Counted from the first letter of the stretch, positions 3,541-27,235 are shown. The stretch: 64,000 bases of DNA from Pseudohongiella sp. (GCA_030651695.1 JAUSCD010000005.1:122915-186914), one strand, 5' to 3'. Notes: generated by a model not told the origin, from the sequence alone. Numbers and translations are program-made.

Positions 3541-3586
3541 ATAAAGGTCAAATTCGTTGCGGCGAATCTGATCTGATGGAGAGTCA

Positions 3587-5359: not shown

Positions 5360-5382
5360 GCAGGCAGGGTAGTAAAGAGCTC

Positions 5383-6306: not shown

Positions 6307-6349
6307 TATCTGACATCAGTACCTTAATTGGCACAGGAACAAACGACCC

Positions 6350-9345: not shown

Positions 9346-9347
9346 CG

Positions 9348-10649
9348 ATGCCTGTCTATCAATATAGAGCCCGCAATGCCACCGGTGGTCTTATTTCCGG
9401 CGCTGTGGAAGCTGCGACATTGGATGCGGCAGCAGGGCAACTGCTGAGTCAGGGAGTTACGCCGATTGATATAAAACGCGGCGAAGAAAAATCAGGCCGC
9501 CGGAGCAGTGGCGCAGATCTCTCGCCGGCTGCCCGCAGAGCTGCCGCCGCACGCAGCCGTAATAAAGAACAAAGTCCGATGGAGAATCTGAATGATCTTT
9601 TGCAGCGAAAAAAGATCGATATAAATGAACTGATTATTTTCTCCCGGCAAATGCAAAGTCTGACACGTGCCGGCATGCCGCTGGATCGTGCTTTGGCAGG
9701 CTTGCAGGCGTCAGTCAAAAATCCGAAGTTTAAGGAGTTGCTGCATAACGTGCAGCGGGGGCTGGAATCGGGTCAGAATCTGTCCACGTCACTCGGGCAA
9801 TACCCAAAAGTATTCTCTCCACTGTTTCTGTCGTTGGTGGATGTTGGTGAGAATACGGGACGTCTTGATCTCGCATTTGAGCAGATCCGACGATATCTTG
9901 AGCTTGAGAAAAACACTCGCAAGCAGGTCAAGAGCGCCACGCGATACCCGGCGTTTGTGTTAGCCACCATGGCAGTTGCATTGGCAATCATTACCTATTT
10001 TGTAATTCCTGCTTTCTCAGAGACCTTCACCCGCTTAGGAGCAGAGTTACCGCTGGAGACCCGGATTCTTATCGGCATTTCTGACTTCGTAGTCCGGTGG
10101 TGGCAGTTTCTCATAGGCGGCACAATCGCTTTGTTTGTTGCATTTCGGACGTGGGTAGGGTCTCGCGCAGGACGCCTTGCCTGGGATGAGATCAAGATGC
10201 GCCTGCCTTTGGCCGGCGGTATTTATGAGCGAATTGCGTTGTCGCGGTTTGCGAGGACGTTTGCCATGGTCATGAAGGCTGGCGTGCCGATTGTTCACGG
10301 TATGGGCGTGGTAGCCGGGGCAGTAGGCAACAAATTTGTTGCCCGCCGGGTTTTAAGGATGCGTGAAGGTATATCCCGCGGTGAATCTCTGTATAACACG
10401 GCGGTTGCAGCTGACATGTTTTCGCCACTGGTGCTGCAGATGATTGCTGTTGGTGAGGAGAGCGGTATGGTCGATCAATTGCTGGAGGAGGTCGCAGAAT
10501 TCTATGACGCCGAGGTTGAATACGATCTGAAGCGCTTGGGTGAGGTAATTGAACCGATATTGATCATGTTTATTGCTGGTATGGTTCTGGTGTTGGCACT
10601 GGGCGTATTCCTGCCAATCTGGGATCTCAGCAGTGCTGTCAACAATTAA
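9348..10649 (+). CDS. mshG: Inner-membrane platform protein MshG (PilC/GspF family)
   Basis: MPVYQYRAR, VGENTGRL, RYP.FV, VGEESG, EPILIMFIAGMVLVLALGVFLPIW. Confidence 0.95.
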   Translation: MPVYQYRARNATGGLISGAVEAATLDAAAGQLLSQGVTPIDIKRGEEKSGRRSSGADLSPAARRAAAARSRNKEQSPMENLNDLLQRKKIDINELIIFSRQMQSLTRAGMPLDRALAGLQASVKNPKFKELLHNVQRGLESGQNLSTSLGQYPKVFSPLFLSLVDVGENTGRLDLAFEQIRRYLELEKNTRKQVKSATRYPAFVLATMAVALAIITYFVIPAFSETFTRLGAELPLETRILIGISDFVVRWWQFLIGGTIALFVAFRTWVGSRAGRLAWDEIKMRLPLAGGIYERIALSRFARTFAMVMKAGVPIVHGMGVVAGAVGNKFVARRVLRMREGISRGESLYNTAVAADMFSPLVLQMIAVGEESGMVDQLLEEVAEFYDAEVEYDLKRLGEVIEPILIMFIAGMVLVLALGVFLPIWDLSSAVNN

Positions 10650-10684
10650 TGTCTTCGTGCAGTGCAAAGAAGATGGTGTAAACA

Positions 10685-11269
10685 ATGAACATACAGATGC
10701 GAAATAGAGGTCGAATGTTGCCAGCCGGACAGCGGGGTTTTTCCCTGTTCGAGTTGCTGGTTTATATCTTGATTGCTTCGATTTTGTTCTCTGCGGCAGT
10801 TAATCGCTATCGTGAATACCCGGCGGAGGCAGAGCGCGCAAATTTTGTAGCTGTGCTGTCGCAACTGAAGGCGGGAGTCAATTTACAGATGATGCGGATG
10901 ATTGCTGGCGCAAGCTGGACGCAGAGCGCTGAACTGGACGGTTCCAACCCTATGGATCTGATGCTGGAGCGTCCATCCAACTATCTTGGCGAATTCAGTC
11001 TGGTAGACGCAGCGCTGATGCCCGGGCGGGTCTGGTATTTCGATAGTGGTACTGGTGAGTTGGTGTACATCGCCAGCAACAGCAATAATCTCTATCTTCT
11101 TCAAAATGGCCAACCGATGTCTGGAAATCAGCTGAGGTTCCGCATTACCAGTGTTTACTCCAGTGTGGAGGAGCCACAGGCGCCCAGATGGCAGGGTTTG
11201 ATTCTGGAGGCCAAGACGCCCTATGAGTGGCGTTCTGCGCCCATAGAGGCGATAGCAAATAGTCCCTGA
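10685..11269 (+). CDS. Prepilin-like protein at the MshF position
   Basis: Type IV prepilin motif QRG|FSLFELLVYILI; directly after mshG. Confidence 0.75.
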   Translation: MNIQMRNRGRMLPAGQRGFSLFELLVYILIASILFSAAVNRYREYPAEAERANFVAVLSQLKAGVNLQMMRMIAGASWTQSAELDGSNPMDLMLERPSNYLGEFSLVDAALMPGRVWYFDSGTGELVYIASNSNNLYLLQNGQPMSGNQLRFRITSVYSSVEEPQAPRWQGLILEAKTPYEWRSAPIEAIANSP

Positions 11270-11612
11270 TCGAATGGGTAAAAATCGGGAAGAAAGCGGT
11301 TTATCATATTGATATTTAATAAATAAAAATGTTCTTACAAGCAGCGCCAGGGCTTTTAAGACGAAAAATGGGCAGAAACGGGGAAAATGGGCCAAATTGG
11401 GGATGATTAAGCCTCCATCCCATAGTAAGCGCGTTGATGCGGCTGTAGTATGCCTCCCAACGCTGCGGGTGAAGGCGCAAGCACTCCCTGCAACAAGTTG
11501 ATTCAGCGAACATCGGATTAACTGGATCGGGTCAAAAACAGAATGTAAGCGGTGATCGGCAAACTGTTCAGCAGAGCGTCGGATCAAAAAATTTGAGTCA
11601 GGAGTAATAAAG

Positions 11613-12428
11613 ATGCAAGTACAAACACGTAAAGGCCAGCAGGGTTTTACAATCATTGAATTGGTGGTTGTGATTCTGTTGCTGGGCATTCTGGCAGCCA
11701 CGGCGCTTCCACGCTTTATTGATGTCACTGAGCAGGCGCACGATGCCGTATTCTCCGGCGTAGGCGGTTCAGTTGTTACAGGCACGGCGCTGTATCGTGC
11801 TGAGTGGGTTGCCCGTGGTCAGCCGGCGTCGAATACCGAGCTGCAATCTTACGGCAATCTGCGTGTGGCCCCTGGCTTCTCAGTGGGTGCATACACGGCA
11901 GAAGATGGTGTTGCCACCAGTTCATATACTGCAGCTACCGCATTCGACGGCCGGGCCAGCGGCTACCCTTACGCTGTAGGTGTTGCACCTGCAAACAATG
12001 CTGCGTTTTCAGCCACTAACTGCAAACAAGTGTTTGATAATCTGCTTCAGATAGGAGCGCCGGTTGCTGTTGCGACCTCTGGTGCGCCCGCTACAGATTT
12101 CGGATCAGCGGCGACAGCAGCGGCAATCCGTTCTGCCGTAGCTGCAGCACAGACAGCTTCTGCTGGCGACTTCCAGGTATTTGTCCGCAATGTCCAGGTA
12201 GATACCGGATTTGCAGATAATGCTGCTGCCGGCGGCCCACGACTTGGAGCTGGCTTGGCACGAAACCACCAGCAAGAAGCACCGGCATGCGTCTATGCCT
12301 ACTCTGCTGAAGCAGAAAATAACAACCGCTTCATCCTGTATGTCCCTTGGAATGGCCGCACCCAGATCTTCACAAGTGCCGCCGATCTTCTGACTGCACT
12401 GACTACTTTTGACGGCCCTGCCGTGTAA
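11613..12428 (+). CDS. MSHA-type pilin (MshA/MshB-like), probably the major pilin
   Basis: QQG|FTIIELVVVILLLGILAATALPRF; GGAG RBS; 343-bp upstream intergenic region and strong terminator downstream. Confidence 0.88.
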   Translation: MQVQTRKGQQGFTIIELVVVILLLGILAATALPRFIDVTEQAHDAVFSGVGGSVVTGTALYRAEWVARGQPASNTELQSYGNLRVAPGFSVGAYTAEDGVATSSYTAATAFDGRASGYPYAVGVAPANNAAFSATNCKQVFDNLLQIGAPVAVATSGAPATDFGSAATAAAIRSAVAAAQTASAGDFQVFVRNVQVDTGFADNAAAGGPRLGAGLARNHQQEAPACVYAYSAEAENNNRFILYVPWNGRTQIFTSAADLLTALTTFDGPAV

Positions 12429-12438
12429 TAACTGCGGG

Positions 12439-12468
12439 TATCAAGGCTGGTCCGGACCAGCCTTGATA
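12439..12468. repeat. Perfect 30-bp palindrome after the pilin gene
   Basis: TATCAAGGCTGGTCCGGACCAGCCTTGATA equals its own reverse complement. Confidence 0.95.
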
Positions 12469-12473
12469 ATTGC

Positions 12474-12515
12474 AAAAAGAAAGGCGGGTGGCTATGTGCA
12501 CCCGCCTTTTTTTTT
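12474..12515 (+). terminator. Intrinsic terminator of the pilin gene
   Basis: AAAGGCGGGTG-GCTATGTG-CACCCGCCTTT continuing as a 9-nt T run. Confidence 0.9.
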
Positions 12516-12579
12516 ATTAGTGGCTTTTTGATATAGACTCATCAGGCATTGTTTCAGACTAATTCCTGAGTGGAGCAGA

Positions 12580-13122
12580 TTGATGCCGGCACATAAAACA
12601 TCAGATGGATTTTCAGTGATCGAGCTGGTCATTGTCATCGTTGTGATTGGCATTATTACCGGTGTAGCGATGGCGCGTGCATTACGCAGTGACACCTATA
12701 ACCCGGCACTTGCGCGTGACCAGATTATTGCCATGTCGCGTTCAGCGCAGCAAAAATCGATTGGGCGCTCCGACGTTGTACTTCAGTTACAGCCGACGGG
12801 AAGTGCCCTTGCGATTAACATTCTGGACAGCACAGGGTTGGTGCAATCGGCCAGTCCGGCGCTTGCCAATGTCGGATTGCGCGGGGATATAAATGTCCTG
12901 GGCAGTTGTTCAGTTGTAGCTGGGGGGGCAGATATCACGCAAGGCAATCCATTTATCTTGCGTTACGACTCATTAGGTGACCTGCTTGAGGGCGGCCCTG
13001 CGAATGCTGTGGCCGCTGTCAGCAAAGGCGCGAGGGCATGTATTAACGGCGATCCTGCACTATCAGTGTGTTGGTCGGCAGCAGGTTTCGCTTATGCCGG
13101 AGATTGTGTCGATGTCGATTAG
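12580..13122 (+). CDS. mshC: MSHA minor pilin MshC
   Basis: DG|FSVIELVIVIVVIGII, ARDQIIAMSRSAQQ, Cys-containing C-terminus; gene order. Confidence 0.8.
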   Translation: MMPAHKTSDGFSVIELVIVIVVIGIITGVAMARALRSDTYNPALARDQIIAMSRSAQQKSIGRSDVVLQLQPTGSALAINILDSTGLVQSASPALANVGLRGDINVLGSCSVVAGGADITQGNPFILRYDSLGDLLEGGPANAVAAVSKGARACINGDPALSVCWSAAGFAYAGDCVDVD

Positions 13123-13741
13123 GTCAAAGCAGCACGGCGTCACACTTATTGAAATGGTTGCTGTAATTGTGATTCTTGCTATTGCACTGACTGCAGTCAC
13201 CCAGGTTATTTCAGTTTCCATAAGTCGAAGTTCCGACACTTTGCTCGAAACACGCGCGGTGGCGTTGGCTCAAAGTTATCTGGACGAGATACTGAGCAAA
13301 CGATTTGATGAGAAATCGGCACCGAGGGGAATCCCCCCGTGCCATAACACGCATAATCCCTGCACCTCTGAGCTATTGTTTGGAGTTGATGGTGGAGAAG
13401 TACGCGCGCTGTTTGATGACGTTGACGACTATCATCAGCTTCAGGAAGGTGACGGTTATGCAGACCCGTTGCGTGACTCGGAAGGGCAGACGAGGCAGGG
13501 ATATGAGAATTTCATGATCTCGGTGGAGGTGCGCTATTTACGTCCCTGTAACGAAGAGGCGGCCTGGTTTCAGTTTCCGCCTGAAATCTGCAGCCCGGAT
13601 CAGGGTGATCCTGTAGCAGTAGCAGAATCTGCGGACACTTTGCTGGATGCAGGGCAGTCAGCAAAGTTGGTGCGCATTACTGTCAGTCATCGAGAGCAGT
13701 TGAATGGATGGCATTTTAGCGTGTACAAGGCCAATTTCTGA
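13112..13741 (+). CDS. mshD: MSHA minor pilin MshD
   Basis: Start trimmed to ATG 13112; HG|VTLIEMVAVIVI, LAQSYLDEILSKRFDE, FDDVDDY. Confidence 0.85.
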   Translation: MSIRSKQHGVTLIEMVAVIVILAIALTAVTQVISVSISRSSDTLLETRAVALAQSYLDEILSKRFDEKSAPRGIPPCHNTHNPCTSELLFGVDGGEVRALFDDVDDYHQLQEGDGYADPLRDSEGQTRQGYENFMISVEVRYLRPCNEEAAWFQFPPEICSPDQGDPVAVAESADTLLDAGQSAKLVRITVSHREQLNGWHFSVYKANF

Positions 13742-13757
13742 TGAGCAAGGGTGCCAG

Positions 13758-14645
13758 ATGAAATCTATCGTCCAGCAAGGGTTTACCCTGGTCGAGATGG
13801 TGATCACCATTCTGATCGCAGCAATTTTGTCGGTTGGAATTGTGAATTATATTGGTGATTCAGTAGAAGGTTTTTCCAGTAGCGCTAATCGCAACCGTCT
13901 TGCCAGCAGCGGCCGCACGGTGCTGGACAGGCTCGCGATGGAGCTGCATAACGCAGTACCTAACAGTGTCAGGACAAGATCTGTTGCTAATCAGCAATGC
14001 ATTGAGTATGTGCCGTTTATCAGGGCAACGTCCTACGTTGACCCGGCTTTTAATGGCCCGCCATCCGATGTCTTTGACATGGTGGTATTAAATCCATCAT
14101 TAACATTTCCGCCGCATGACCCGCTGACAGATCCGCCGCGTAAGCCGCTTTACGCAGTGATTTATCCAATCAGTGTTGCTGATCTGTATCTGGACGCGGC
14201 GCAGGCGAGCAGTCCGGGGATTATCGCCGGCATCAGTTCGATTCAGGAAAATATAGATCATCAGGGGCGTCTGAGCGTGGCGTTGGAAAATCCTCATCTA
14301 TTCCGATTGCGGTCGCCGGTTAACCGAATTTACATTGCTGAATCCCCGGTAAGTTTTTGCATGGTAGATAGCAGGATATTCCGCTACAGCGACTATGGTT
14401 TCCATGCACAACAACCCACGCCTTTGTCGGAATGCCCGCCCAGCTCAGGAACGTTATGCCTGCCAGAAACATCACCCAGTCGTCGACTTATTACCGACAG
14501 GGTGGTGAATACAGGCGTTGGTGCGTTTGAAGTGATTGCTGCTACGTTGCGGCGTAACGCCATTGTGTCCATTACGCTGGCTTTTGAAGATCAAGGGGAT
14601 GTGGTGAATCTGAAACACGAGGTGCTGTTACGTAATGTGCCCTGA
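13758..14645 (+). CDS. mshO: MSHA minor pilin MshO
   Basis: Start trimmed to ATG 13758; QG|FTLVEMVITI, RLAMELHNAVPNSVR, CIEYVP, HEVLLRNVP. Confidence 0.88.
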   Translation: MKSIVQQGFTLVEMVITILIAAILSVGIVNYIGDSVEGFSSSANRNRLASSGRTVLDRLAMELHNAVPNSVRTRSVANQQCIEYVPFIRATSYVDPAFNGPPSDVFDMVVLNPSLTFPPHDPLTDPPRKPLYAVIYPISVADLYLDAAQASSPGIIAGISSIQENIDHQGRLSVALENPHLFRLRSPVNRIYIAESPVSFCMVDSRIFRYSDYGFHAQQPTPLSECPPSSGTLCLPETSPSRRLITDRVVNTGVGAFEVIAATLRRNAIVSITLAFEDQGDVVNLKHEVLLRNVP

Positions 14646-15096
14646 GTCCAATGTCAGTCTAAATAATCCAGGCAAACGAGAGTTTCGCATTGGGCTGCAG
14701 AAAGGTGTGGGCCTGCCTGCTGCAATTTTTGTCATCACCTTGCTTTCTGCTATCGCAGGAGGGATCAGCTTGCTTGTGTCGCAGAATGCGGAAACTTTTG
14801 AAGAGGAAGTAATGTTGACGCGCGCATTTTATGCGGCGGAGTCAGGAGCTGGGCTTGCATTGGGGGTACTGTTCCCTACCGGTAGTTTTCCGGAATATCA
14901 GGCGCGCGACGCTTGCTCGACTCAGCCTTGGCAGTATGAATTCTCAGTAGATGGGCTGGCCCAATGTAAAGCAGAGGTCAGTTGTGCGCTCGATGCCACG
15001 GTGGATGAGTCTGACTACTTTACGCTGACCAGCGTGGGCCGCTGTGACAATATCAGTCGCACAGTTCAGGTGAGAACGGCTTACAGGGAGCCATAA
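14635..15096 (+). CDS. mshP: MSHA minor pilin MshP (PilX-like)
   Basis: QKG|VGLPAAIFVITLL, RAFYAAESGA, LTSVGRC..RTVQV. Confidence 0.85.
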   Translation: MCPESNVSLNNPGKREFRIGLQKGVGLPAAIFVITLLSAIAGGISLLVSQNAETFEEEVMLTRAFYAAESGAGLALGVLFPTGSFPEYQARDACSTQPWQYEFSVDGLAQCKAEVSCALDATVDESDYFTLTSVGRCDNISRTVQVRTAYREP

Positions 15097-15451: not shown

Positions 15452-15664
15452 GATTGGCCTCAATGGGTTGTGGTGCCGTGCCGAAGTATTCTGTGACTGG
15501 CAGCAGTATTTTGCAATCGATTAACTGTCTTCGCCGGGTCAATTTAGGGCACAAATAGACGTACATCCCCCCTTAATTCTGAACTCGTCAATGGCTATCC
15601 GTTACAATGCTCAAGTATATAAAAATAAAACAATTATCAACCCATGGCTCGCTGTTGACGCTGA

Positions 15665-18600
15665 ATGAAAATACGCACTAATCCAACCCGCTCAAGCCCA
15701 ACGCCAGGCAATTCATTTGCCGGGCGGCTGCTGCGCGGGTTTTGGCATAGCGCGATCCTTGCTGTCTCTGTGCTCGGAGCAGCGACAATGGTGTCCGGCC
15801 AGATACCAGGGCCGGTGGCTCTGCAAGGGAGCGGTGGCACGATTACAACGCCCGGTGCAGGACCTGCCGCAGGTTTTGTTGTCCACACATTTACCGGTGA
15901 CGGTACGTTCAGGGCGCCAACCGGTGTGACCGAAGTGGAAGTTCTGGTAGTTGGCGGAGGCGGCGGCGGCGGTAGCGGTGCCGCGAACTCTCTGGGCGCT
16001 GGTGGCGGTGGCGGTGGCGGTTTGATGATCGAACGATCAGTGGCCGTAACGCCCGGGCAGGATATTGACGTCACTATCGGAACCGGCGGCAATGGTGGTA
16101 ACGCCGGTGGCAGGGGCGCTGCCGGCAATCCGTCCATTTTTGTTGCGAACCAGACGGTAACCGCGCCCGGCGGCGGTGGTGGCGGCGGGTCATTGAACAT
16201 CACCGTTGATGGCTCGAACGTCCGCAACGCTCTGTCTATGGTGGGTGGTGGCAGCGGTGGTGGCGGCGGTTCCCGGGACGATGGTAACAATGGCGGCTCG
16301 GGTGGCACGGCAAGCAGTCTGCCTGCCAATTCATTTGCCAATAACGGAGCAAATGGTCGCGGTGCAAGTAATGCCAACACCGCACAACGTGCTGGTGGTG
16401 GTGGTGGCGGCGCCAATGCCAATGGCAGCACTTCTCCTTCGAATGGCAATGGCGGTGCCGGTGGTGGTGCGCGCACCAGCGCCCTGTTTGGCGGCAGTTA
16501 CGCGGGTGGTGGCGGTGGTGGTGGTGGCAGTAGTGGCGGCAGTGGCGGCACCAACGCCGGCAACGGTGCGACAGGAGTCAATGTGCCGGCAGCTCCTGCC
16601 AACAATTTTGGTGGTGGTGGCGGCGGTGCGCGTAATGCCACCGGTGGCCAGGGTGGTTCCGGGGTGGTGATTGTCCGGTATCGCGCTCCCGCTCTGGAGA
16701 TCAGTCAGCAGGATGTAGCACCCGTCGCTAACAGTGGCACAGCATTCAGTACGCCGTTTCAGGTTCGTCTGGTCAATGGTGTAGGCAACGGAATCAGTGG
16801 CATAAATGTCTCGGCTACATTGGAAGCAGGTGCCGGCTCGCTCACCAATGCGACGGTGGCAACCGATGCATCCGGTTTCGCCACCTTTACCAATCTGACG
16901 ATAACAGGGACCGCAGGTACCTATGCTCTTCGTTTCACTGTTGCAGGTGCAAACGACAGTTATGTTGTCTCCAATAATATTCAACTATTGCCTGCCTGCG
17001 AAAATACAGGGCAAAGTGATTGCCAATACACCATCACCGAAGGAGGCATTGACTATGTTGTCGAGGTTTACACCACAACAGGCACATCAAATTTTACGCC
17101 TCCGCTGGGCGTAGACAGCGTTGAGTATCTGGTTGTTGCGGGTGGCGGTGGTGGTGGTGCATGGCGTGGTGGTGGCGGCGGTGCCGGCGGATTCAGAACC
17201 GGCACCTTATCAGTAACACCGGCATCTTCGCTGACTGTAACCGTTGGCAGCGGAGGCGCAGGCGCGCCAGCCGGAACGAACAACAGTCGTGGCAGCAATG
17301 GTGCAAATTCTGTGTTTGCAACCATCATCTCGAATGGTGGTGGTGGCGGCGGTATTGGCGAGAACTCCAATAATGCGGGCGGAGCCGGTGGTTCTGGTGG
17401 CGGCCGTGGTGGTGCTGCAGCTACCGGTACCCAGACTGCTGGCGCAGGCACTGGCGGACAAGGCAACAATGGCGGTGTGTCCTTTGATGATGCTAGCGCA
17501 GCCCCCAGATCGGGAGGTGGGGGTGGTGGTGCCGGAGCCGCTGGCGGCGCGGCCTCCAGCGCGCAAGGTGGAAATGGTGGCGCAGGTACGACTTCCGCTA
17601 TCAGCGGCTCATCCAAACCGTATGCTGGCGGCGGCGGCGGCAGCTCTGATGGAGGCGGTTCCGGAACCGGTGGCAGTGGCGGCGGTGGCTCGGGTAATAC
17701 TTCAGGGAATGCGCAGGCTGGTCAGGTGAACACGGGCGGCGGTGGTGGCGGCGCCGGCGGCGGATTCCAGAGTACAAACCAGGGTGGCGCAGGCGGCTCC
17801 GGTATCGTTATTGTCCGTTATGAAGTGCCGGATATCTGTCTGATTGCAGGGCAAGGCGATTGTACGTACATGATCACCGAGGGCGGTGTCGATTACATTG
17901 TTGAAGTCTACACCACCACCAACACCTCCAGCTTTACAGCACCTGTCGGCGTGGAACGTATTGAGTATCTCATTGTCGGCGGCGGCGGCCCCGGTGGCAC
18001 CGGTACTGACCGTACTTCGGGCGGTGGTGGTGCTGGCGGATTGCTGACGGGCAACGTCAACGTGGCGTCAAATGTTCCACTGACAGTCACGGTAGGCGCA
18101 GGTGGCACTAACAATACCAATGGCGGCAATTCTGTATTCAATACACTGACCGCCATTGGTGGTGGCGTCGGCGGGCGTGGCAGTGCACCCTATGTCAATG
18201 GTCAGGCGGGCGGTTCCGGAGGCGGCGGACAGCACAACGGAGCGTCAGCAGCCGGCGCCGGAACTGGCGGACAGGGTAACGCCGGCGGCAACGGTTATGA
18301 CCCCGGATCGGTTACGTTTGCAGCTGGGGGCGGTGGCGGCGCCAGCAGCGCAGGCGGCACGGCAACAGCAAACCAGAACAATGGCAACGCTGGCGCTGGT
18401 GGCGCCGGTCTGTCTTCCACAATAGCGGGTTATCTGCAGTACTTTGCCGGTGGTGGTGGCGGAGCAGCGCAGACGGACGCTCCCGGTTATTCGGCGGGCG
18501 TTGGTGGCATTGGCGGCGGCGGCGCCGGCGGCCGGGCCGCGGTTACTGGTTCCCAGAACAGTCCTGGCGCGGCAGGTACGGCAAACACGGGCGGTGGGGG

Positions 18601-21600
18601 CGGCGGTGGCTCTGCCAGTGGCACCGGCGCACTGACGGGAGGAAACGGCGGCTCGGGTATCGTAGTGTTGCGCTATACACTGCCGCAGTTTGAGATTGTG
18701 CATTCCACCAGTTATGGACTCTGCACATCGTCACAACCTCTGCAGATCACAATCCGCGACGGGCTTGGCAATCTGGTTCAGAATTACACTGGCACAGTAA
18801 CTGTCTCTAATAGCGGTAATCAGGGAAGCTACAGCATAGGCACCGGGCTGGGCACGCTGACGCCTGTCAGCGCTGGCGTGGCAACCTATACCTTCCATGA
18901 CAATGACAACGGTCAGGTCATACTGAATTTTGCCACCACTACGCCCGGCACAATCAGCTTTGACGTTAATGATAGCGTCAATGACATTGTGACCGATCCG
19001 GACTACAACCTGAGCATGCAGATCGGAAGCTGTGCTTTCCGGATTATTCACGACGAGGCGGGCAGTGTTTGTAGCCCTGAAGCAATTACCATTCAGGTTA
19101 TGGGTCCTGGCAATGTTCTGGTAACAAATTATCAAGGCACCATCAGTCTGAGTACGGCAGGTATTACCGGAGGCAACTGGAGTAAAACATCCACTCCCGC
19201 AAATGCCAACGGTACTCTCACGCAGGGAGCTCCCAATACAGGTGCCGCTACGTACGGATTTACCTTGGCCGATGGCGGAGATATCGTTCTGAATTTCAGA
19301 GGAACCCAGGCTGAGACCGTCAATTTTAATATCGTAGCCGCCAACGTTGCTCAGCCAGCGGGCATATACGACCCGGATCTGGTAATCGGCAATTGCCTGT
19401 TCCGGGTAACGCATAGCGGCAGTTCTGATGTCTGCTCAATAGAGCAGGTGACGATTACACTGGTTGATGCCAGCGGCAATACCGTCACCAACTATGAAGG
19501 AACTATCAACCTCAGCACTACCACCGGCTTTGGTACCTGGCAGGCAATAGGGCAGTCGGATGGTGTTTTGACTGATCCGGTAAGCGAGGACGGCAACGCC
19601 ACCTATGCTTTCCAAAGCAGTGATCTCGGAACAATCACGCTGGGATTCCGGCATATATCCAATACCGGGCCCGTCAATATCAATGTCAGCGATGGTCTTA
19701 CGTTGGATGCGCGTGATTCCGGCAGTATATATGACCAGAATATTGTTATTGCACTGTGTTCCTTTGAAATCAGCCACGGGCTGAACAGCAATGCCTGTTC
19801 AGCGACCGAAGTGACTTTCCGTGTACGCAACAGCGCCGGTGGTATTGCGGAAGACTACATTGGCACCATGCGAATATCCAACAACACCGGGCGCGGAGAT
19901 TGGCTGCTGACCGGCTCCGCGGCAGGTGTTCTGACTGAGCCCTCAGGCGTTGATACCGGTATAGCCGACTATGTGTTTTCGCCCGATGATGAAGGCGTTG
20001 TTGTGTTGCGTTTCTATAGTACTTTCCCGGCTGTAATCAACTTCGATACTGTTGACGGGCTCATCACCGAAAATGGGCTATTTGACCCTAATCTGTTCTA
20101 CAGCGGTTGTTTCCCGCAGATTAATGCTGGCCCTGTTTGTACGAATCCCGGCACATCAACCAGTATTGTAATACCCACCGAAAACGTGATTCCTGAGTTA
20201 CGCTCCCGTGTGGTGTTGATGGCGACCATGCAGATTGGTAACTCTGTTGATACCACAACTGCAACATTTAACGGGGTCAACATGACTCGTGTTGTGCGCA
20301 TGGAGAATGATGACCAGAGCCCGATAGTGACGACTGAAATATGGGCCATTCTGGACGACGCTCTGCCGAATGCCGGTGGTTCCTACACTGGTCAGTTCAA
20401 CGGCGGAGTAGGCTCGCCAGCGATATGCCTGCTGTCAGTAGACGGCGTCGAGCAAGCGATTCCGGTACCCACAGCTAACCCGCAGCTGGGTCCTGTAAAC
20501 AGTTCCAAATATACTGGCCCGGCAGTGGGAGGTTTTCATGAGGCCACGACTGTAGTCAGCACAGATAATAACAATGCTTTTATTTTTAGTGTTGTTGCCA
20601 ATGATCGGGGTTCGGATTTCAGTCTTGACCAGTACTACTGGCGTCAGCCGCAGCCCGCATCAACCATGATAGGTCTGTGGGGCGGGCGGGTGCCGGGGAG
20701 TCAGACTGAGCCCCCGTATCGCGAAGCGGTAACCCAGGCTAACGCTACCGGATCAAAGACTGCGGGTTCGGCCGGCGTGCTCAGTTCCGCCGGGATTCTG
20801 GAGGTTGTCGAGCCATTCCGTGTCGCAGGAATTATATTGCCGCCGACTATGAACGCCCATGTCGTGGCAGCGTTTAATCCTTTGGTAACCGGGCAGCCTC
20901 TGGCTGAGGACTATGTGCCTGTGTTGTTGTATGAGACATTCTCGGGCGCTCTGAGCTACAGGGCAATTGGCAATACCTTGCGCACACTGCCATCCCAGAC
21001 CAATCTGTCAGTGGATCCGTCAGTAGACTGCGCAATGGTCAACTTTGCCACCGGCACCACTTCCGCGCTGTCTATCCCGGCGGGTTCAACCATCACAGCT
21101 GCCTATCTCTATTGGTCGGGCTCAGGCACGCCCGCGCAGGCAGACTCCCAGGTTTCGTTCGGGCTGGACGGGAGTGAGGTCGCGGTAGTTGCTGACGAAG
21201 TTTTTCTGGCAACAGGCGTGACTGCAGTCAGCGCCGATTTTTTTGCGGCTTATGCGGAGGTGACTGAGCTTGTATCAGGTAACGGCACTTACAGACTCAA
21301 AGATCTGACTGTGCAGACCGGCAACCCGTGGAACACCAATGGCACTTGTGCCGGTGGCTGGTCGCTGATTGTTGTTTATGAGAATCAGGATGAACATCTG
21401 CGAGTCATCAATTTGTTCCATGGATTCCAGCCTTTCCAGTACTCGGCGTTTACTTTGGTGCCACGTAACTTTCGTATGGCAACCTTCGATCCAAATCTTT
21501 TGTTGCCTAACGGTCAAGTGACCCACGTGACCCTTGAGGGTGACGAACAGCTGGCGACAGGGAATGAGTCACTTGCGATTCAGCTGGAACCGGACTCGTT

Positions 21601-24600
21601 TCTTTTTGAGCCGCTGTATACCAGTTTTAACCCTGAGAACGGCGAATTCAACTCAACTATCACACGTCCGCTTTATTGGCTTGGTCCGTCAGGATACATC
21701 GAGTTTGTAGGTGAGTGGGACACTCCGCGTGATCCGCCGTGGACGGTGCCGCCGGTAGCGCCTGGTCAGGGTCTTAACGGCGACGGTTACGAGATCACAT
21801 TGCCCGGAGTCAATGCTGTGCAGGCAGGGCGAAACGGCAATCGCATTGGTGAGAGCTGGGGCTTTGACATTGATACACACTATCTGAGCCACACCCTGCT
21901 CGAGAGTTTTGCTCAGGAAGGCCAGGAAGCCGAACGCATAACAACACGTTACAGATCCGGGCAGGACATGGTTATTCTGCTGTCGGAAGTCATCAGTATT
22001 ACCAACTTTCCGATTGCTGATCTGGAAGTATTTATCTCCCAGAGTGGTACGTTTAAAGTCAACGGTACGGGTTCATATATTATTGATGTCAAAAACAACG
22101 GTAACGGCACATCAATTGGCGGTCAGGCGACCGGGATAGTGACGGTTGCAATGCGATTGCCATCGGGCATGACGTTTCTCAATGCTGCTGATGTCAGCGG
22201 AACCGGATGGGTTTGTAACGTAGAACTTGATCCGGGCGCACTCACGTGTGAGTACAATATTGCGGCGACACATGCAGGTGCTCAGTTGCAGCCGGGGAAC
22301 AATCTGCCACCTATTACTGCCAATGTAAAAATAGCATCTCCGATAATATTTACTCAGCAGTCAAATACCAGAAAGGCCAGTGTCCGTATGCTGCACAACG
22401 GCGGCAGTTGCGAAGTGACTCCGATCGGTTTTATACCGGACCCCAGGGAGTGCAACCGTTCCCCTCAGTTTGACAACGTTAATGATACACAAGGGGATAC
22501 TATTGATATTGACTCGCTGGTAGACAAGAGCAGCAGTAACAACAATGTTCATAGTATTACAACAACGGTCACCGGCATCACAACCAATCTGCGCATGCAG
22601 AAAGCCGTTTCCGGGTCGCTTGAAACCGGGCAGACCGGCCAGTATTTGCTGACAGTGACCAATCTTGGGCCGGACGCAACTACCGCGCCGTTTACTATTT
22701 CAGATAGTCAGCCGCCCGGTGTCGAGTTTACTGGTGCCGCCGGAACAAACTGGTCGTGCAGCACGATTACGCCCGTTCTCAACTGTACATTTAATGGCAC
22801 ATTAGCGTTAAACGCTTCTGCAGTTTTGACTCTGGGTGTTGATGTTGTGGGCAATGCCGGATTCAACGTCACCAACACTGTTCAGGTGACTGTCGGCACG
22901 GGTAACTTTGATCTGGTGCCTGCCAACAATGCGGCAACAGATATTACGACAATTATTGGCCCTCCGGTTGCCTCGCAGGAACGTTTCCTGTTGTCTGTTT
23001 CAACGCCCGGAAATGCAACAACAATCGGCGGATTGGGGCCTTTCCAGAATAACGACCTGGTTATCTATGATCCTTCAACGGACGAGGCTGTTATGTTCTT
23101 TGATGACAGCGCTACCAATGGCGGCAGAATAGACGACATTAATGCTGTGCATTTGCTAAAGAACGGACATCTGGTGATGTCGGCAAATGGCCCAAGTGTT
23201 ATCGGAACAAATAATCTGGCATTTGATCGCTGGGATCTTGTGCGACATGACCCTATTCTGGGGACAGCCAGTCTGTTCCTCGATGGTGAGGCAGTGTTCC
23301 AGAATTTTGAAGACATCAATATCAATGGTGTTTATGTTATGGATGATTGTCCGGCCAACAATAATAACGTCACCTGCAGTGTTGTTTTCACAACCACAAC
23401 GGGCGGAGTTGCCGGCAGTAATAATCTCTCGTTCACAGCGTCTGATCTTGTGATCTATTACCGTAGCGGACCCAATGCCGGTCAGGCAGCCATCTATCTG
23501 GACGGTAGCGACGAAGACGTATTCGGGGCTGTTGAAGGGTCAGGTAATGTAAATGTCGATGCCTTCTACCTGCGCGTCGATCCGGACGACCCCAAAGCTG
23601 TGCTGGACGTGTTTGTGCTGTCTGTGGATAACGACACTGCCATCATTGGTGAGGGTCTCGATCCTGATCCGTTCACAGGTACCATCTTCACGCGTGACGA
23701 CGTAACCGAATTGAATCTGGAAGACAGCACTGCCGGCAATCTTTTCCTTGGCGACGAAGAGCTCGGCGTATTCGAGCCCGGTGCTGCACAGCGCCGTATT
23801 GATGCTCTGCATCTTGTGGAAGACGGTTATATCGGTCATTTCAGCATCAGACAGGAGCAGGGCGGCAGCGTTTGCGAGGCAGGTGTAATCCGCATCAGTA
23901 AACACGACGGTCTGACACACAATCGGGATCTGGATTACTATGGCTCTGTGCGTATCAATACCAGCACAAACTATGGCACCTGGCAGTTGCAGTCGGGCAG
24001 TGGAGTGGTCACCAATAATGGCAATGGTGAAGCTGTATATACCTATGATTCTAGTGATCAGGGCACGGTTGTACTACGTTTGGTGCACGATCAGGTAGCC
24101 ACCGTCAATATCAGTGTGACGAATGGTATTGCCAGAGAGATTGGCAGCGAAGATCCGAATTTCAGTTACGACCCCTCGCTCACACAAATCACCTGGGGTG
24201 ATGCCTTCAGTACGTCATCGTTCTCCAACAATGACGGTAGCAGAAACTTTAGTGCCAATTGGGTTGAGTTGGATGCTGTGGATGGTACGGATAGCGGCGG
24301 CCTTGGCGCCGGGACCGGGAATATCCAGATTATCAGCGGCCGGTTGCGCATGTCTTCGAGTGTCGCGGCTGCCAACGCAAACAAGCAACCTTCTCTGTCG
24401 CGCGTATTTAATATCGCATCTGTACCGTTCTCACAGGATGTCATACTGAAACTGCGATACGGACACAGTGCCTTGGCTCCGACAGACTCTATGGTGGTCG
24501 AGGCGCGCGGCTCATCGGTTGACAACGATAGCTGGGTGCAGGTGTTCAATTTCACCGGTGCCAGTTACACGGCTGACCTGACAAATTCTTCCATTCCTGT

Positions 24601-27235
24601 TGAGTACAATCTGTCCACGATTCTGGCAGCGGCATCCCAGAGTTTTTCAGAGTCTTCTGAGATTCGATTCCGTGTCAACAGTGGTTACCAGCTCAGCAAT
24701 CGATTCTTTTTCATTGACGAAGTTTATATCGCGACCGCGACCGATCAGTGTGGTTTCGGTGGCGCCGGCTCACTGGATCACTATGCAATCTTCCATAGCG
24801 GATTCGGAATTTCCTGCGTGGGTTCGGCGATCACCATTGCTGCCCATGATGTCAACAATGGTCTGATTGATGCAGGTAGTGAAACTATCAACATCAGTAC
24901 CTCTCCCGCCAAGGGAACCTGGGCCCGGGTGCTTAGCGGTAGTGGCACTCTGACGCCAATTGGCAGCCAGTCAGACAATGGTTTGGCGCAATACGTATTT
25001 GCTCCGGGGGAGGAAGAAGTAACACTCTTGCTGAATTACACGGTGCCGGCGGGTGAATCTCTGCCTGTAAATATCAATGTACAGGGCGCTGTCAGTAATG
25101 CAGTTGAACTGGCTGGCGAAGACCCGGACCTTGTGATTGCCGAGGCCGGCCTGGTGTTTTTTAACGAAACGACACTGAACACCACCTACCCTGTCCAGAT
25201 CGCCGGAAAACCATCCAGCGTGGCACCGTTGAATAACCTGCTCACAATCCAGGGGGTGCGCAGCTCTGATAGTGATCCGCTGCAATGTGTGCCGTTGTTT
25301 GCTGATGGCCAGACCTTACAGATCGAGTTGGCGGCAGAGTGTATTGATGCTAACGAATGTGTAAACGGCGAAGCATTTTCAGTAACAACAAGCGCAAACA
25401 ATACACCGGTAAGCACGGATATTGCGCTGGTGGACAGCAATGGTGGCGTGGGCGCTTCTGCATATACACCGGTGACGATGGATTTTGTTACTCAGCCAAG
25501 CGGCGCGCCGGGTGCTACTGTGGTGCTCAACTATTCGGATGTGGGTCAGATGCAGTTGCATGGCCGGTACAATATCCCGTTTGGATTTTTTGGCGGCTCA
25601 TCCCCGGATGATCCATTGGCTGCGCCCGGGTACTCAGGCGATTTTATGATGGGCAGCAGCAATACTTTTGTAGTGCGGCCTTTTGGTTTCGCCATTGATT
25701 TCCCCGGAGACGTGGGGCTGGATCGTGCTGATAATTTCCCGCCTGCCAATTTTGAAGCTGGTGATTCATTTGCGGAAGATAGTGCTGGCACGATCTGGAA
25801 GATGGCGGGTGACGACTTTGACACCGTTGTCACGGCCATGGCGTGGCAGGCTGAGGATGATGCCAATAATGATGGCATGCCGGATGCAAACGCCAATCTG
25901 CACGATAACCGGCGTACGCCTAACTTTTTCTACGACTCTGCCGGCCAGGCAAACAATTACCGGGTAGAACTCAGTGTTGTGCAAAACCAGGCTGAATCGA
26001 TTTTTATCAGTGAAGCCGATCCGGAGTTTGGTGTGCGTGGAAATCTGACTGACTATATGCTCGATTTTGCTGACTTTGATAATTACGCTGTAGCCGGCAC
26101 CGGCTTTACCAATATGAGTTACAACGAAGTTGGCATCATCGACATCAGGGCGCAGATTCTCGATACCAACAACAATCCGACAACGTATCTGGGTACACAG
26201 GCTGTCACCGGCCGTGTCAATAATGTCGGGCGTTTTTATCCGGCCGTATTCACAGTTGATGGTGCCGTCACGCTGCTGCCCAGAGTTCAATCAAGCTGCA
26301 CCCCGCCCTCGTCGTTCACATATATGGGTGAGCCATTTGGTATTGCTCTGCAGTTAACCGCACGGAATCTTCAGGGTTCTCCGACGGTCAATTATCGCGG
26401 CGACTTCGCCAGGTTGGCGGCATACTCCGGGTTAAATATGCGTGCAATCGAGGAGATTGCAGCCGCCGACAATGTGGATCGCAGCAGCCGTCTGGAAAAT
26501 ATCTCGGTCCCGGTCAACCTGCAGTCGGTGTGGTCTGCATCTGACGGTGGTTTGTTGCAGGTTACCGGTTACCTTGCTTTTAACCGGGCAGATCCTGCTG
26601 ACCCTGACGGACCGTTTGATGAGCTGATTATTGCGTTCGACCCGACCGACAGTGATGGTGTGACTCTGAATCCCGCAGTGCTAAATGTGGAAATTGTTGA
26701 AGACACGCCGGAATTTTTTGAGCTTGCGCGCGAGACATTCCGTTATGGCCGTATCCTGATAAACAATGCCTATGGGCCGGAAACAGAAGACCTGGCAATC
26801 ACATTCCGTGTTCAGTACTTTGACGGTGAGCGTTTTGTGGTCAATACGGACGATTCCTGTACGGTGATCAATTCGAATGAGTTGAGCCTGTTGCCGGGCA
26901 CGGAAACAGGCTTACTCCAGCCGGCAGATACCGATATAGTGGCAGCCCAGACCAGCACCTTCCACAATGGCCAGATTCAAGGGGTGCAGGCAGCGATCAA
27001 CCCGACGGATGCTACGTTTACTGCAGAAGCTGCTGGCCTGGACAATGCCGGCACAATAGACATAGAACTGGATCTGAGCCCGGGCGGGCTGAATCTGCCA
27101 TGGCTGCAGTTCCGCTGGCCACATGAAGATCAGGATTACGACGAAAATCCAAGAGCGACCATAGAATTTGGTCAGTTCCGCAGCCATGATCGTGTGATCA
27201 ACTGGCAAGAGATTTATAACGGACCAACGCCCTGA
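15665..27235 (+). CDS. mshQ: Giant (3856 aa) MshQ-like pilus-associated adhesin
   Basis: Single open frame; Sec-type signal; C-terminus FRYGRILINNAYGPE..QYFDGERFVVNTDDSCT and PWLQFRW..DENPRATIEFGQFRSHDRVINWQE match the MshQ (DUF6701) C-terminus; last gene of the msh cluster. Confidence 0.88.
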   Translation: MKIRTNPTRSSPTPGNSFAGRLLRGFWHSAILAVSVLGAATMVSGQIPGPVALQGSGGTITTPGAGPAAGFVVHTFTGDGTFRAPTGVTEVEVLVVGGGGGGGSGAANSLGAGGGGGGGLMIERSVAVTPGQDIDVTIGTGGNGGNAGGRGAAGNPSIFVANQTVTAPGGGGGGGSLNITVDGSNVRNALSMVGGGSGGGGGSRDDGNNGGSGGTASSLPANSFANNGANGRGASNANTAQRAGGGGGGANANGSTSPSNGNGGAGGGARTSALFGGSYAGGGGGGGGSSGGSGGTNAGNGATGVNVPAAPANNFGGGGGGARNATGGQGGSGVVIVRYRAPALEISQQDVAPVANSGTAFSTPFQVRLVNGVGNGISGINVSATLEAGAGSLTNATVATDASGFATFTNLTITGTAGTYALRFTVAGANDSYVVSNNIQLLPACENTGQSDCQYTITEGGIDYVVEVYTTTGTSNFTPPLGVDSVEYLVVAGGGGGGAWRGGGGGAGGFRTGTLSVTPASSLTVTVGSGGAGAPAGTNNSRGSNGANSVFATIISNGGGGGGIGENSNNAGGAGGSGGGRGGAAATGTQTAGAGTGGQGNNGGVSFDDASAAPRSGGGGGGAGAAGGAASSAQGGNGGAGTTSAISGSSKPYAGGGGGSSDGGGSGTGGSGGGGSGNTSGNAQAGQVNTGGGGGGAGGGFQSTNQGGAGGSGIVIVRYEVPDICLIAGQGDCTYMITEGGVDYIVEVYTTTNTSSFTAPVGVERIEYLIVGGGGPGGTGTDRTSGGGGAGGLLTGNVNVASNVPLTVTVGAGGTNNTNGGNSVFNTLTAIGGGVGGRGSAPYVNGQAGGSGGGGQHNGASAAGAGTGGQGNAGGNGYDPGSVTFAAGGGGGASSAGGTATANQNNGNAGAGGAGLSSTIAGYLQYFAGGGGGAAQTDAPGYSAGVGGIGGGGAGGRAAVTGSQNSPGAAGTANTGGGGGGGSASGTGALTGGNGGSGIVVLRYTLPQFEIVHSTSYGLCTSSQPLQITIRDGLGNLVQNYTGTVTVSNSGNQGSYSIGTGLGTLTPVSAGVATYTFHDNDNGQVILNFATTTPGTISFDVNDSVNDIVTDPDYNLSMQIGSCAFRIIHDEAGSVCSPEAITIQVMGPGNVLVTNYQGTISLSTAGITGGNWSKTSTPANANGTLTQGAPNTGAATYGFTLADGGDIVLNFRGTQAETVNFNIVAANVAQPAGIYDPDLVIGNCLFRVTHSGSSDVCSIEQVTITLVDASGNTVTNYEGTINLSTTTGFGTWQAIGQSDGVLTDPVSEDGNATYAFQSSDLGTITLGFRHISNTGPVNINVSDGLTLDARDSGSIYDQNIVIALCSFEISHGLNSNACSATEVTFRVRNSAGGIAEDYIGTMRISNNTGRGDWLLTGSAAGVLTEPSGVDTGIADYVFSPDDEGVVVLRFYSTFPAVINFDTVDGLITENGLFDPNLFYSGCFPQINAGPVCTNPGTSTSIVIPTENVIPELRSRVVLMATMQIGNSVDTTTATFNGVNMTRVVRMENDDQSPIVTTEIWAILDDALPNAGGSYTGQFNGGVGSPAICLLSVDGVEQAIPVPTANPQLGPVNSSKYTGPAVGGFHEATTVVSTDNNNAFIFSVVANDRGSDFSLDQYYWRQPQPASTMIGLWGGRVPGSQTEPPYREAVTQANATGSKTAGSAGVLSSAGILEVVEPFRVAGIILPPTMNAHVVAAFNPLVTGQPLAEDYVPVLLYETFSGALSYRAIGNTLRTLPSQTNLSVDPSVDCAMVNFATGTTSALSIPAGSTITAAYLYWSGSGTPAQADSQVSFGLDGSEVAVVADEVFLATGVTAVSADFFAAYAEVTELVSGNGTYRLKDLTVQTGNPWNTNGTCAGGWSLIVVYENQDEHLRVINLFHGFQPFQYSAFTLVPRNFRMATFDPNLLLPNGQVTHVTLEGDEQLATGNESLAIQLEPDSFLFEPLYTSFNPENGEFNSTITRPLYWLGPSGYIEFVGEWDTPRDPPWTVPPVAPGQGLNGDGYEITLPGVNAVQAGRNGNRIGESWGFDIDTHYLSHTLLESFAQEGQEAERITTRYRSGQDMVILLSEVISITNFPIADLEVFISQSGTFKVNGTGSYIIDVKNNGNGTSIGGQATGIVTVAMRLPSGMTFLNAADVSGTGWVCNVELDPGALTCEYNIAATHAGAQLQPGNNLPPITANVKIASPIIFTQQSNTRKASVRMLHNGGSCEVTPIGFIPDPRECNRSPQFDNVNDTQGDTIDIDSLVDKSSSNNNVHSITTTVTGITTNLRMQKAVSGSLETGQTGQYLLTVTNLGPDATTAPFTISDSQPPGVEFTGAAGTNWSCSTITPVLNCTFNGTLALNASAVLTLGVDVVGNAGFNVTNTVQVTVGTGNFDLVPANNAATDITTIIGPPVASQERFLLSVSTPGNATTIGGLGPFQNNDLVIYDPSTDEAVMFFDDSATNGGRIDDINAVHLLKNGHLVMSANGPSVIGTNNLAFDRWDLVRHDPILGTASLFLDGEAVFQNFEDININGVYVMDDCPANNNNVTCSVVFTTTTGGVAGSNNLSFTASDLVIYYRSGPNAGQAAIYLDGSDEDVFGAVEGSGNVNVDAFYLRVDPDDPKAVLDVFVLSVDNDTAIIGEGLDPDPFTGTIFTRDDVTELNLEDSTAGNLFLGDEELGVFEPGAAQRRIDALHLVEDGYIGHFSIRQEQGGSVCEAGVIRISKHDGLTHNRDLDYYGSVRINTSTNYGTWQLQSGSGVVTNNGNGEAVYTYDSSDQGTVVLRLVHDQVATVNISVTNGIAREIGSEDPNFSYDPSLTQITWGDAFSTSSFSNNDGSRNFSANWVELDAVDGTDSGGLGAGTGNIQIISGRLRMSSSVAAANANKQPSLSRVFNIASVPFSQDVILKLRYGHSALAPTDSMVVEARGSSVDNDSWVQVFNFTGASYTADLTNSSIPVEYNLSTILAAASQSFSESSEIRFRVNSGYQLSNRFFFIDEVYIATATDQCGFGGAGSLDHYAIFHSGFGISCVGSAITIAAHDVNNGLIDAGSETINISTSPAKGTWARVLSGSGTLTPIGSQSDNGLAQYVFAPGEEEVTLLLNYTVPAGESLPVNINVQGAVSNAVELAGEDPDLVIAEAGLVFFNETTLNTTYPVQIAGKPSSVAPLNNLLTIQGVRSSDSDPLQCVPLFADGQTLQIELAAECIDANECVNGEAFSVTTSANNTPVSTDIALVDSNGGVGASAYTPVTMDFVTQPSGAPGATVVLNYSDVGQMQLHGRYNIPFGFFGGSSPDDPLAAPGYSGDFMMGSSNTFVVRPFGFAIDFPGDVGLDRADNFPPANFEAGDSFAEDSAGTIWKMAGDDFDTVVTAMAWQAEDDANNDGMPDANANLHDNRRTPNFFYDSAGQANNYRVELSVVQNQAESIFISEADPEFGVRGNLTDYMLDFADFDNYAVAGTGFTNMSYNEVGIIDIRAQILDTNNNPTTYLGTQAVTGRVNNVGRFYPAVFTVDGAVTLLPRVQSSCTPPSSFTYMGEPFGIALQLTARNLQGSPTVNYRGDFARLAAYSGLNMRAIEEIAAADNVDRSSRLENISVPVNLQSVWSASDGGLLQVTGYLAFNRADPADPDGPFDELIIAFDPTDSDGVTLNPAVLNVEIVEDTPEFFELARETFRYGRILINNAYGPETEDLAITFRVQYFDGERFVVNTDDSCTVINSNELSLLPGTETGLLQPADTDIVAAQTSTFHNGQIQGVQAAINPTDATFTAEAAGLDNAGTIDIELDLSPGGLNLPWLQFRWPHEDQDYDENPRATIEFGQFRSHDRVINWQEIYNGPTP

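Follow-up and report, generated by a model that had tools for sequence, protein, structure and literature searches.

Gly_rich_2 modules at the N-terminal end of a giant MshQ-like protein of Pseudohongiella: candidate outer heads of a pilus-tip adhesin

The locus

The stretch of Pseudohongiella sp. DNA analysed here (64,000 nucleotides, GCA_030651695.1, JAUSCD010000005.1:122915-186914; hereafter the window) encodes a type IV pilus operon of the mannose-sensitive haemagglutinin (MSHA) type, whose last gene, placed after the minor pilin genes with one minus-strand open reading frame (ORF) intervening, specifies an MshQ-like giant protein that begins with three glycine-rich modules (Table 1). These modules are the subject of the present work. 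The region that holds them, positions 15833 to 18676, corresponds to residues 57-1004 of the 3856-aa ORF (15665-27235, plus strand). An earlier note on this DNA, drawn up from the nucleotides alone, had read the region as three copies of a phage-type domain co-opted by the bacterium as a pilus tip with three different specificities, or as a decoy or surface-binding lattice, and had put it forward as the best candidate in this DNA for an undescribed system.

A cluster representative 98% identical to the giant protein and relatives of 3300-4100 aa were also found. A scan of the whole protein against NCBIfam returned zero matches, and a scan of contigs with the whole protein retrieved only two distant Omnitrophota loci, which matched its middle region.

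Table 1. Features of the giant MshQ-like protein and of the upstream pilus operon (positions counted from the first letter of the window).
Feature	Position	Strand	Residues	Evidence or remark
MshQ-like giant protein, 3856 aa, ~392 kDa	15665..27235	+		single open frame; three N-terminal Gly_rich_2 modules, C-terminal DUF6701
Gly_rich_2 module 1	15893..16684	+	77-340	PF21722 61.5 bits, E 1.6e-16, profile 3-226 of 226
Gly_rich_2 module 2	17072..17824	+	470-720	PF21722 112.5 bits, E 4e-32, profile 1-226
Gly_rich_2 module 3	17912..18676	+	750-1004	PF21722 85.3 bits, E 8e-24, profile 1-225
DUF6701 domain, C-terminal, MshQ signature	25229..27214	+	3189-3850	PF20419 353.5 bits, E 4e-105
N-terminal hydrophobic helix	15716..15799	+	18-45	AlphaFold2 helix at 18-42
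A-Q-x-P-G-P motif	15797-15817	+	45-51	directly after the hydrophobic helix
Ig-like spacer domain between modules 1 and 2	16751..16957	+	363-431	weak Pfam matches
Cys-x7-Cys linker (C445, C453)	16997..17023	+		just ahead of module 2; ACENTGQSDCQY; kept in P0003
Second Cys-x7-Cys linker (C725, C733)	17837..17863	+		just ahead of module 3; ICLIAGQGDCTY; identical in P0003
MSHA-type type IV pilus operon, upstream	932..15096	+		NCBIfam and Pfam scans
PilM-like gene, GspM-like gene, MshM-like ATPase, TPR protein	within 932..15096	+		NCBIfam and Pfam scans
Secretin MshL	3587-5359	+		NCBIfam/Pfam
MshE ATPase with cyclic diguanylate (c-di-GMP)-binding motif	7411-9345	+		NCBIfam/Pfam
GspF-like platform protein	9348-10649	+		NCBIfam/Pfam
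Five prepilin-type genes (prepilin N-methylation motifs)	10685-14645	+		NCBIfam/Pfam
153-aa ORF in MshP position	14635-15096	+		position
101-aa ORF	15158-15463	-		weak DUF4177 match, E 6e-4, below gathering score

Three copies of a catalogued domain

A hidden Markov model (HMM) search, which the earlier note had proposed as a check, identified the Pfam family PF21722 (Gly_rich_2) for each copy, with an E-value of 3.9e-61 for the whole protein. When the protein was scanned in pieces, all three modules exceeded the gathering score of the family (24.3 bits) and spanned nearly the entire 226-position profile, including its framing strands. The count of three full-length copies was thus borne out, and the module ends noted earlier (residues 339, 719 and 1004) agree with those given by Pfam (340, 720 and 1004). 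The motif string that had been written down at the time is likewise recognisable in the alignment of the three copies, where the opening strands read xVHTFT..GTF..P.GV..VE.LVVGGGGGG and the closing motif GGSG(I/V)V(I/V)xRY is common to the three modules and to the consensus of the Gly_rich_2 family. The framing strands are shared with the family consensus as well, and we see no structural difference between the modules and PF21722.

The copies are clearly related and far from identical: modules 2 and 3 share 49% and 42% identity with module 1, the glycine content is 35-38% in all of them, and module 1 is the most divergent copy, with long loop insertions such as VDGSNVRNA. The GC content climbs to 0.61 at 16-18 kb because of the glycine codons of the modules. 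No long DNA repeats link the modules, which share only runs of GGY codons at this level. The duplication that produced them is accordingly old, and the possibility of a recent one was rejected on the same ground. Tandem Repeats Finder reported a single 32-nt array, which makes phase variation of the slippage type unlikely.

Fold and structural relatives

Module 2 was modelled with AlphaFold2 (AF2) from a 37-sequence alignment of single modules, and the prediction reached a mean predicted local distance difference test score (pLDDT) of 94.9 and a predicted template modelling score (pTM) of 0.92. The model begins and finishes with beta strands, and DSSP assigns some 200 residues, placed with high confidence, to neither helix nor strand; the structure prediction that the earlier note had called for hence gives a folded, and not a disordered, module. 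In a Foldseek search of the PDB with this model, the best match was the tail fibre of cyanophage Pam3 (7ypx, E 2e-6, probability 1.0; 7yfw, E 1.5e-3), together with the tail tip of mycobacteriophage Bxb1 (9d93, chains Qa and Qb, E 3e-5) and the glycine-rich domains of ALK/LTK (7lir, 7nx1 and 7ls0, E 1e-2 to 4e-2), with Foldseek probabilities of 0.99-1.0 for 7ypx, 9d93 and 7lir. Phage tail proteins and ALK/LTK, the fold relatives that had been named from the sequence, are thus among the best solved matches. With TM of only 0.29-0.52 (template modelling score), the predicted module belongs to the fold class of Pam3, Bxb1 and ALK without matching any of them closely. At the level of sequence, a phmmer search of module 2 against PDB entries produced only chance matches to flavoproteins, through a GxGxxG-like run.

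The Pam3 tail fibre protein gp24 is the most instructive of these relatives. It consists of a beta-sandwich similar to that of tumour necrosis factor (TNF), whose strands extend into a glycine-rich domain of 12 motifs stacked about 5 Å apart. The stem of this domain is conserved and its distal tip, to which receptor recognition was assigned, is variable; the authors compared gp24 with gp38 of phage S16 and superposed gp24 on ALK 7LIR (PMC9608196). The modules resemble gp24 (7YPX, 7YFW) in their logic of strand, loop and strand, and the C-terminal GxxGIIIVQY motif of gp24 recalls their closing motif. They differ in that module 2 aligns with gp24 at a template modelling (TM) score of only 0.45-0.48 and 21-23% identity, and in their architecture: gp24 is a trimeric fibre protein of 280-289 aa with an N-terminal helical shaft and a requirement for the chaperone gp25, whereas the modules are larger, with about 13 glycine runs against 12 motifs, and stand in tandem in a single giant chain.

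The Bxb1 tail tip (9D93), from a siphovirus, is the second-best solved match (TM 0.45-0.52, 24% identity), and its 'brush' domains, with their glycine-rich fingers, are described as presumed antireceptors (PMC13243795). The TNF-like plus glycine-rich (TG) domain of ALK/LTK (7LIR, 7NX1, 7LS0) belongs to the same fold class by Foldseek; it forms, however, the ectodomain of a metazoan receptor kinase that binds protein cytokines, and its 14-17% identity with module 2 points to a distant relationship.

The kinship with T-even gp38 that the earlier note had also proposed turned out to be weak. The receptor-binding tip of gp38 (Salmonella phage S16, PDB 6F45) is made of glycine-rich motifs with variable loops. 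With phrog_863 ('tail fiber assembly'), perhaps a family of gp38 type, the modules align at E 7.5e-16 to 1e-7 over part of the profile only. S16 gp38 was absent from the 50 PDB fold matches listed and from the PDB sequence searches; its middle domain is of another kind, a beta-helix, and its motifs number 10, in three layers (PMC9608196).

Occurrence in cells and viruses

When module 2 was scanned against 1.84 billion cluster representatives (50%-identity clusters), 17,937 proteins matched at E<=1e-3 and 7,929 at E<=1e-10. Large proteins among them carry tandem arrays of up to about 11 Gly_rich_2 copies and come from Lentisphaerae, Planctomycetes, Elusimicrobia, Actinobacteria and Bacteroidota, among others, with LamG, FN3, PKD, S74-chaperone and type IX secretion system (T9SS) domains, among others, as partners. 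Gly_rich_2 is a catalogued, promiscuous extracellular module, and the description of the locus as an undescribed system is not tenable, given how widespread the domain is in giant surface proteins of many bacterial phyla.

What the locus adds is the context, namely Gly_rich_2 as the outermost part of a protein predicted to sit at the tip of a type IV pilus. PF21722 mostly occurs in proteins of phages, or in giant surface proteins that also have LamG, FN3, S74-chaperone or T9SS domains, whereas the modules of the window belong to an MshQ/DUF6701 pilus protein. No paper on Gly_rich_2 modules in MshQ-type proteins, the predicted pilus tips, was found in a literature search, and searches on PF21722 or Gly_rich_2 and on Pseudohongiella together with pilus retrieved nothing.

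The assignment of the modules to a class common in phage tails, on the contrary, holds well. The modules match PHROG 2295 at E 8e-54, and 272 predicted viral structures of BFVD match at E<=1e-3, the best of them with TM 0.86-0.87 and 36-48% identity; among their sources are uncultured Caudovirales, Synechococcus and Pelagibacter phages, prasinoviruses and Halorubrum phage HF2. In IMG/VR, at least 14 viral loci carry a confirmed Gly_rich_2 domain (L004-L017). The usual viral gene encodes about 550 aa, with a short N-terminal part and two tandem modules at the end of the protein, and two such genes occur per contig in L006, L009, L012 and L013; those of L009 (5848-7560 and 8175-9875) lie among genes for collagen-like proteins and long tail fibres. 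A tblastn search of GenBank phages gave a single partial match, to Phage DSL-LC04, a result that has little bearing on the distribution in phages given that the low-complexity filter is its probable cause.

Distribution and descent of the modules in the giant MshQ lineage

DUF6701 proteins were found in 16 of the 21 genomes of the same genus, and 14 of them are open frames of 3302-4079 aa, while the DUF6701 forms of relatives in the same order mostly measure 783-1596 aa. PF21722 was tallied in 11 of the 21 genomes. However, G007 and G013 (loci L033 and L032), negative in this tally, hold two clear modules each when searched with a profile of our own (E ~1e-50), and the figure of 11 is therefore too low, six-frame tallies undercounting such a low-complexity domain. 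A passing suspicion that the modules are missing from some giant MshQ proteins was dropped for the same reason. The N-termini that were read have one or two modules, and DUF6701 homologues from the protein search have one, two or three at this end. The modules of L018 (same-genus genome G010) are identical to those of P0058 from Pseudohongiella acticola, another cluster of relatives comes from Pseudohongiella sp., Tara samples included, and all three modules recur in P0003, the closest relative. Judging from these sequences, an architecture with one to three modules belongs to the giant MshQ lineage of Pseudohongiella and its relatives.

Phylogenies were computed for 230 modules with FastTree and for 92 modules with IQ-TREE. 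Module 1 falls inside an 11-row clade made of MshQ modules only (support 99, FastTree), and module 3, 78% identical to the last module of P0003, forms a clade with that protein and P0006 (support 100 in FastTree, 99-100 over the two trees). Modules 1 and 3 both lie within a 60-row clade (support 89, FastTree) in which apparently all rows but one are MshQ modules. The closest companions of module 2 are P0147 and P0040 (support 95, IQ-TREE), of which the first is a T9SS cargo protein whose gene adjoins that of aspartyl-tRNA synthetase, and the second a protein of 3641 aa whose gene is followed by an ShlB-type transporter gene, with dnaN and the isoleucyl-tRNA synthetase gene alongside. Most viral modules (22/31) are gathered in one 25-row group with three cellular rows and no module of the window (support 89, IQ-TREE). 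Since all three modules have their nearest relatives in cells, the data lend no support to a recent capture from phage or to the proposal that the bacterium had co-opted a phage fold, the more so as MshQ proteins of the same genus carry the modules. The earlier note had itself named long-standing cellular proteins as the nearest homologues that would speak against its proposal, and this is in part what was found. The backbone of the IQ-TREE phylogeny is without resolution, so that these groupings bear on recent descent and not on the ultimate origin of the family.

Two relatives document how the N-terminal end changes. In module 2 of P0003, a stretch of glycine hairpins about 70 residues long has been duplicated (residues ~620-760), a duplication that is absent in the corresponding part of the window (17500-17700), and the glycine lattice may grow by such hairpin duplication. 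In P0006, a close MshQ homologue, a glycine-rich domain of another, shorter type occurs twice (residues ~60-500, ending GANGFIRVSYTT and GAAGKITIRYEV) in place of modules 1 and 2, and by its sequence the distal end of this protein looks like a cassette replacement.

The loops between the glycine runs, said to differ completely among copies, were compared by classing profile columns as glycine runs, predicted strands or other (non-glycine) loops and computing percent identity per class. Among the three pairs of paralogues of the window, loops are 22-32% identical, strands 40-50% and glycine runs 76-90%, so that the claim stands roughly, the difference not being complete. Between orthologues of the window and of P0003, the respective values for loops, strands and glycine runs are 29%, 58% and 83% for module 1, 57.5%, 67% and 99% for module 2, and 70%, 72% and 93.5% for module 3.

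Pilus genes and comparison with MshQ of Vibrio cholerae

MshQ of Vibrio cholerae (~1200 residues) comes after mshDOP, was proposed as a functional analogue of the tip adhesins PilY1/PilC, and its extreme C-terminus was modelled to add a beta strand to MshP, a PilK-like minor pilin (PMC12918778). The giant protein shares with it the C-terminal DUF6701 domain and the position past the minor pilin genes. It differs by its size, 3856 aa against ~1200, with about 3100 extra residues of modular domains ahead of DUF6701, of which Gly_rich_2 comes first. By analogy, DUF6701 is presumed to be the pilus-docking end of the giant protein.

The N-terminal hydrophobic helix is a probable Sec signal peptide, and no prepilin GFxxxE motif occurs in the sequence of the giant protein. 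In the A-Q-x-P-G-P motif that follows the helix, Q46, P48 and P50 show no variation, and A45 and G49 hardly any, among the 16 giant MshQ N-termini compared, and the motif may represent a processing or sorting site. Module 1 starts about 30 residues past it.

A second DUF6701 protein, of 1008 aa and with a bactofilin-like N-terminal part, is encoded in the same genome as the giant protein, on contig C23 of G000 (C23:102826-104457; L031:7815-10841, minus strand), where its neighbours are genes for a phosphate transporter, phosphoenolpyruvate carboxylase and DUF418, with no pilus operon. This protein may serve as an alternative subunit of the tip, or at the cell surface independently of any pilus. 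In G032, from the same order, two adjoining DUF6701 proteins form open frames of 8474 and 8548 aa (contig C87:39550-69561).

Candidate ligand-binding heads of a pilus-tip adhesin

The reading that we favour, with moderate confidence, is that the modules, inherited within the lineage, serve a pilus-tip adhesin as its outermost, ligand-binding heads. The MshQ-type protein would be a PilY1-like tip subunit of the MSHA-type pilus, its C-terminal end docked to the minor pilins; if so, the three modules, at the mature N-terminus, would be the most distal part, furthest from the pilus shaft. They would then act as the first-contact, ligand-binding heads of a ~390-kDa adhesin built like beads on a string. 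As in Pam3 gp24 and ALK/LTK, each module would consist of a small beta-sandwich with strands running on into about 12 glycine-run segments, which may pack as a lattice of polyglycine-II type with the variable loops at its end. The set of modules would evolve by duplication, by loop change and by exchange of cassettes with other secreted proteins of cells.

Several points weigh against this reading. While the identity of the domain, a confident fold for module 2, the operon setting and the placement in the trees are shown, tip location, binding function and different specificities are all properties that we infer, the first of them from V. cholerae MshQ, and the literature yielded no ligand for any cellular Gly_rich_2 domain. 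The TM values of module 2 are moderate for the phage proteins (0.45-0.52, with large root-mean-square deviations) and lower for ALK/LTK (0.23-0.31), and a profile search of PDB sequences reached Pam3 at E 0.06 only. An AF2 prediction of 1032 residues comprising the three modules (16 sequences) had a pLDDT of 57.8, with 70-93 in the strand parts and less than 50 in most glycine parts; owing to this poor model, the fold of modules 1 and 3 is deduced from HMM homology only. The 101-aa minus-strand ORF sits between the gene in MshP position and the giant gene, and the orphan DUF6701 protein of G000 implies that this domain is not strictly tied to the operon. Lastly, clear hypervariability of the loops is restricted to module 1, the loop identities of modules 2 and 3 lying closer to those of their strands; rapid loop change in the outermost module only fits a contact role for module 1, and is not in itself a sign of three specificities.

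Among other explanations, a recent capture from phage, in which a receptor-binding module gained by horizontal transfer was grafted onto a pilus adhesin, might come to mind given the abundance of the domain in phages (272 BFVD models with up to 50% identity and TM 0.87, at least 14 IMG/VR loci, and genes among tail-fibre genes in L009), and the unresolved deep branches of the tree leave room for an ancient viral origin of the family. Nevertheless, the position of module 1 in an MshQ-only clade, of module 3 with MshQ homologues and of module 2 with the T9SS cargo P0147 and the ShlB-neighbour P0040, both encoded beside housekeeping genes, as well as the separate 25-row group that holds 22 of the 31 viral modules and none of the window, make it very improbable; moreover, the architecture is common to the genus and to a sister genus, the rise in GC is no more than the glycine codons demand, and prophage genes do not flank the giant gene. 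Still less credible, to the point of being nearly dismissible, is a lattice whose flat polyglycine-II face would bind ice or minerals, as in the snow-flea antifreeze protein, or modules that would mimic phage proteins as a decoy. Polyglycine-II bundles do include antifreeze proteins (review preprint 10.1101/2023.11.25.568672), and a C-terminal DUF6701 was described on some ice-binding proteins (PMC11645318), yet no antifreeze protein figures among the 50 PDB fold matches listed, the relatives come from ordinary marine samples, Tara included, and the NCBIfam and Pfam scans gave no hint of defence functions in the locus.

Two further explanations deserve more attention, although we hold both to be unlikely. 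The modules may be structural spacers, that is, rigid and protease-resistant stalk elements, with binding carried out by the DUF3344, DUF11 or Ig-like repeats; such a role would suit the spacer-like arrays of up to about 11 tandem modules in other giant proteins, the absence of excess loop variation between close orthologues in modules 2 and 3, and the many other candidate binding domains of the giant protein. It accords poorly with the location of the modules at the far N-terminal end rather than in the middle of the protein, with the loops of module 1, which diverge far faster than its strands, and with a number and type of modules that vary between species at this very end; besides, in the cases studied the domain provides the binding surface (the tip of Pam3 gp24 and, according to the titles of the entries, ligand binding by ALK/LTK). 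Alternatively, the giant protein would not be borne by the pilus at all, and would be a cell-surface or released adhesin with DUF6701 anchored elsewhere, the proximity of the pilus genes reflecting co-regulation only. The DUF6701 protein encoded away from pilus genes, the description of DUF6701 as a domain of very diverse surface proteins (PMC11645318), the minus-strand ORF that breaks the operon just ahead of the giant gene and the size of a 392-kDa subunit, about three times that of V. cholerae MshQ, all go in this direction. Against it, minor pilins followed by a DUF6701 protein reproduce the gene order mshDOPQ, MshQ was modelled as docking to MshP (PMC12918778), and the giant form retains a full DUF6701 domain (353 bits).

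A more ambitious version of the pilus-tip reading is tentative, and we regard it as rather doubtful. The pilus would end in a ~390-kDa adhesin with heads of phage-fibre type, exchanged as cassettes between pilus adhesins, phage fibres and the cargo of T9SS and two-partner secretion. Bacteria and phages would thereby draw on a shared pool of polyglycine lattices for the same glycans of cell surfaces or particles, and the three heads would confer three specificities on each pilus.

If MshQ is a tip adhesin, the locus offers a simple setting in which to ask what a cellular Gly_rich_2 domain binds, a question that arises for many phage fibres as well as for giant surface proteins in their thousands. 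Attachment range would lend itself to comparison between species that have one head and those that have two or three.

Spacer and linkers between the modules

Between modules 1 and 2, the Ig-like spacer shows similarity to Big_1, SdrD_B and CarboxypepD_reg (E 4e-6 to 4e-4), each under its own gathering score, and AF2 places beta strands at residues 365-427 with pLDDT 65-79. Short linkers with two cysteines (..C.NTGQSDC.Y and ..CLIAGQGDC.Y) precede modules 2 and 3 only, none being present ahead of module 1. Both are conserved in P0003 and P0006, and a disulphide may form within the Cys-x7-Cys linker ahead of module 2.

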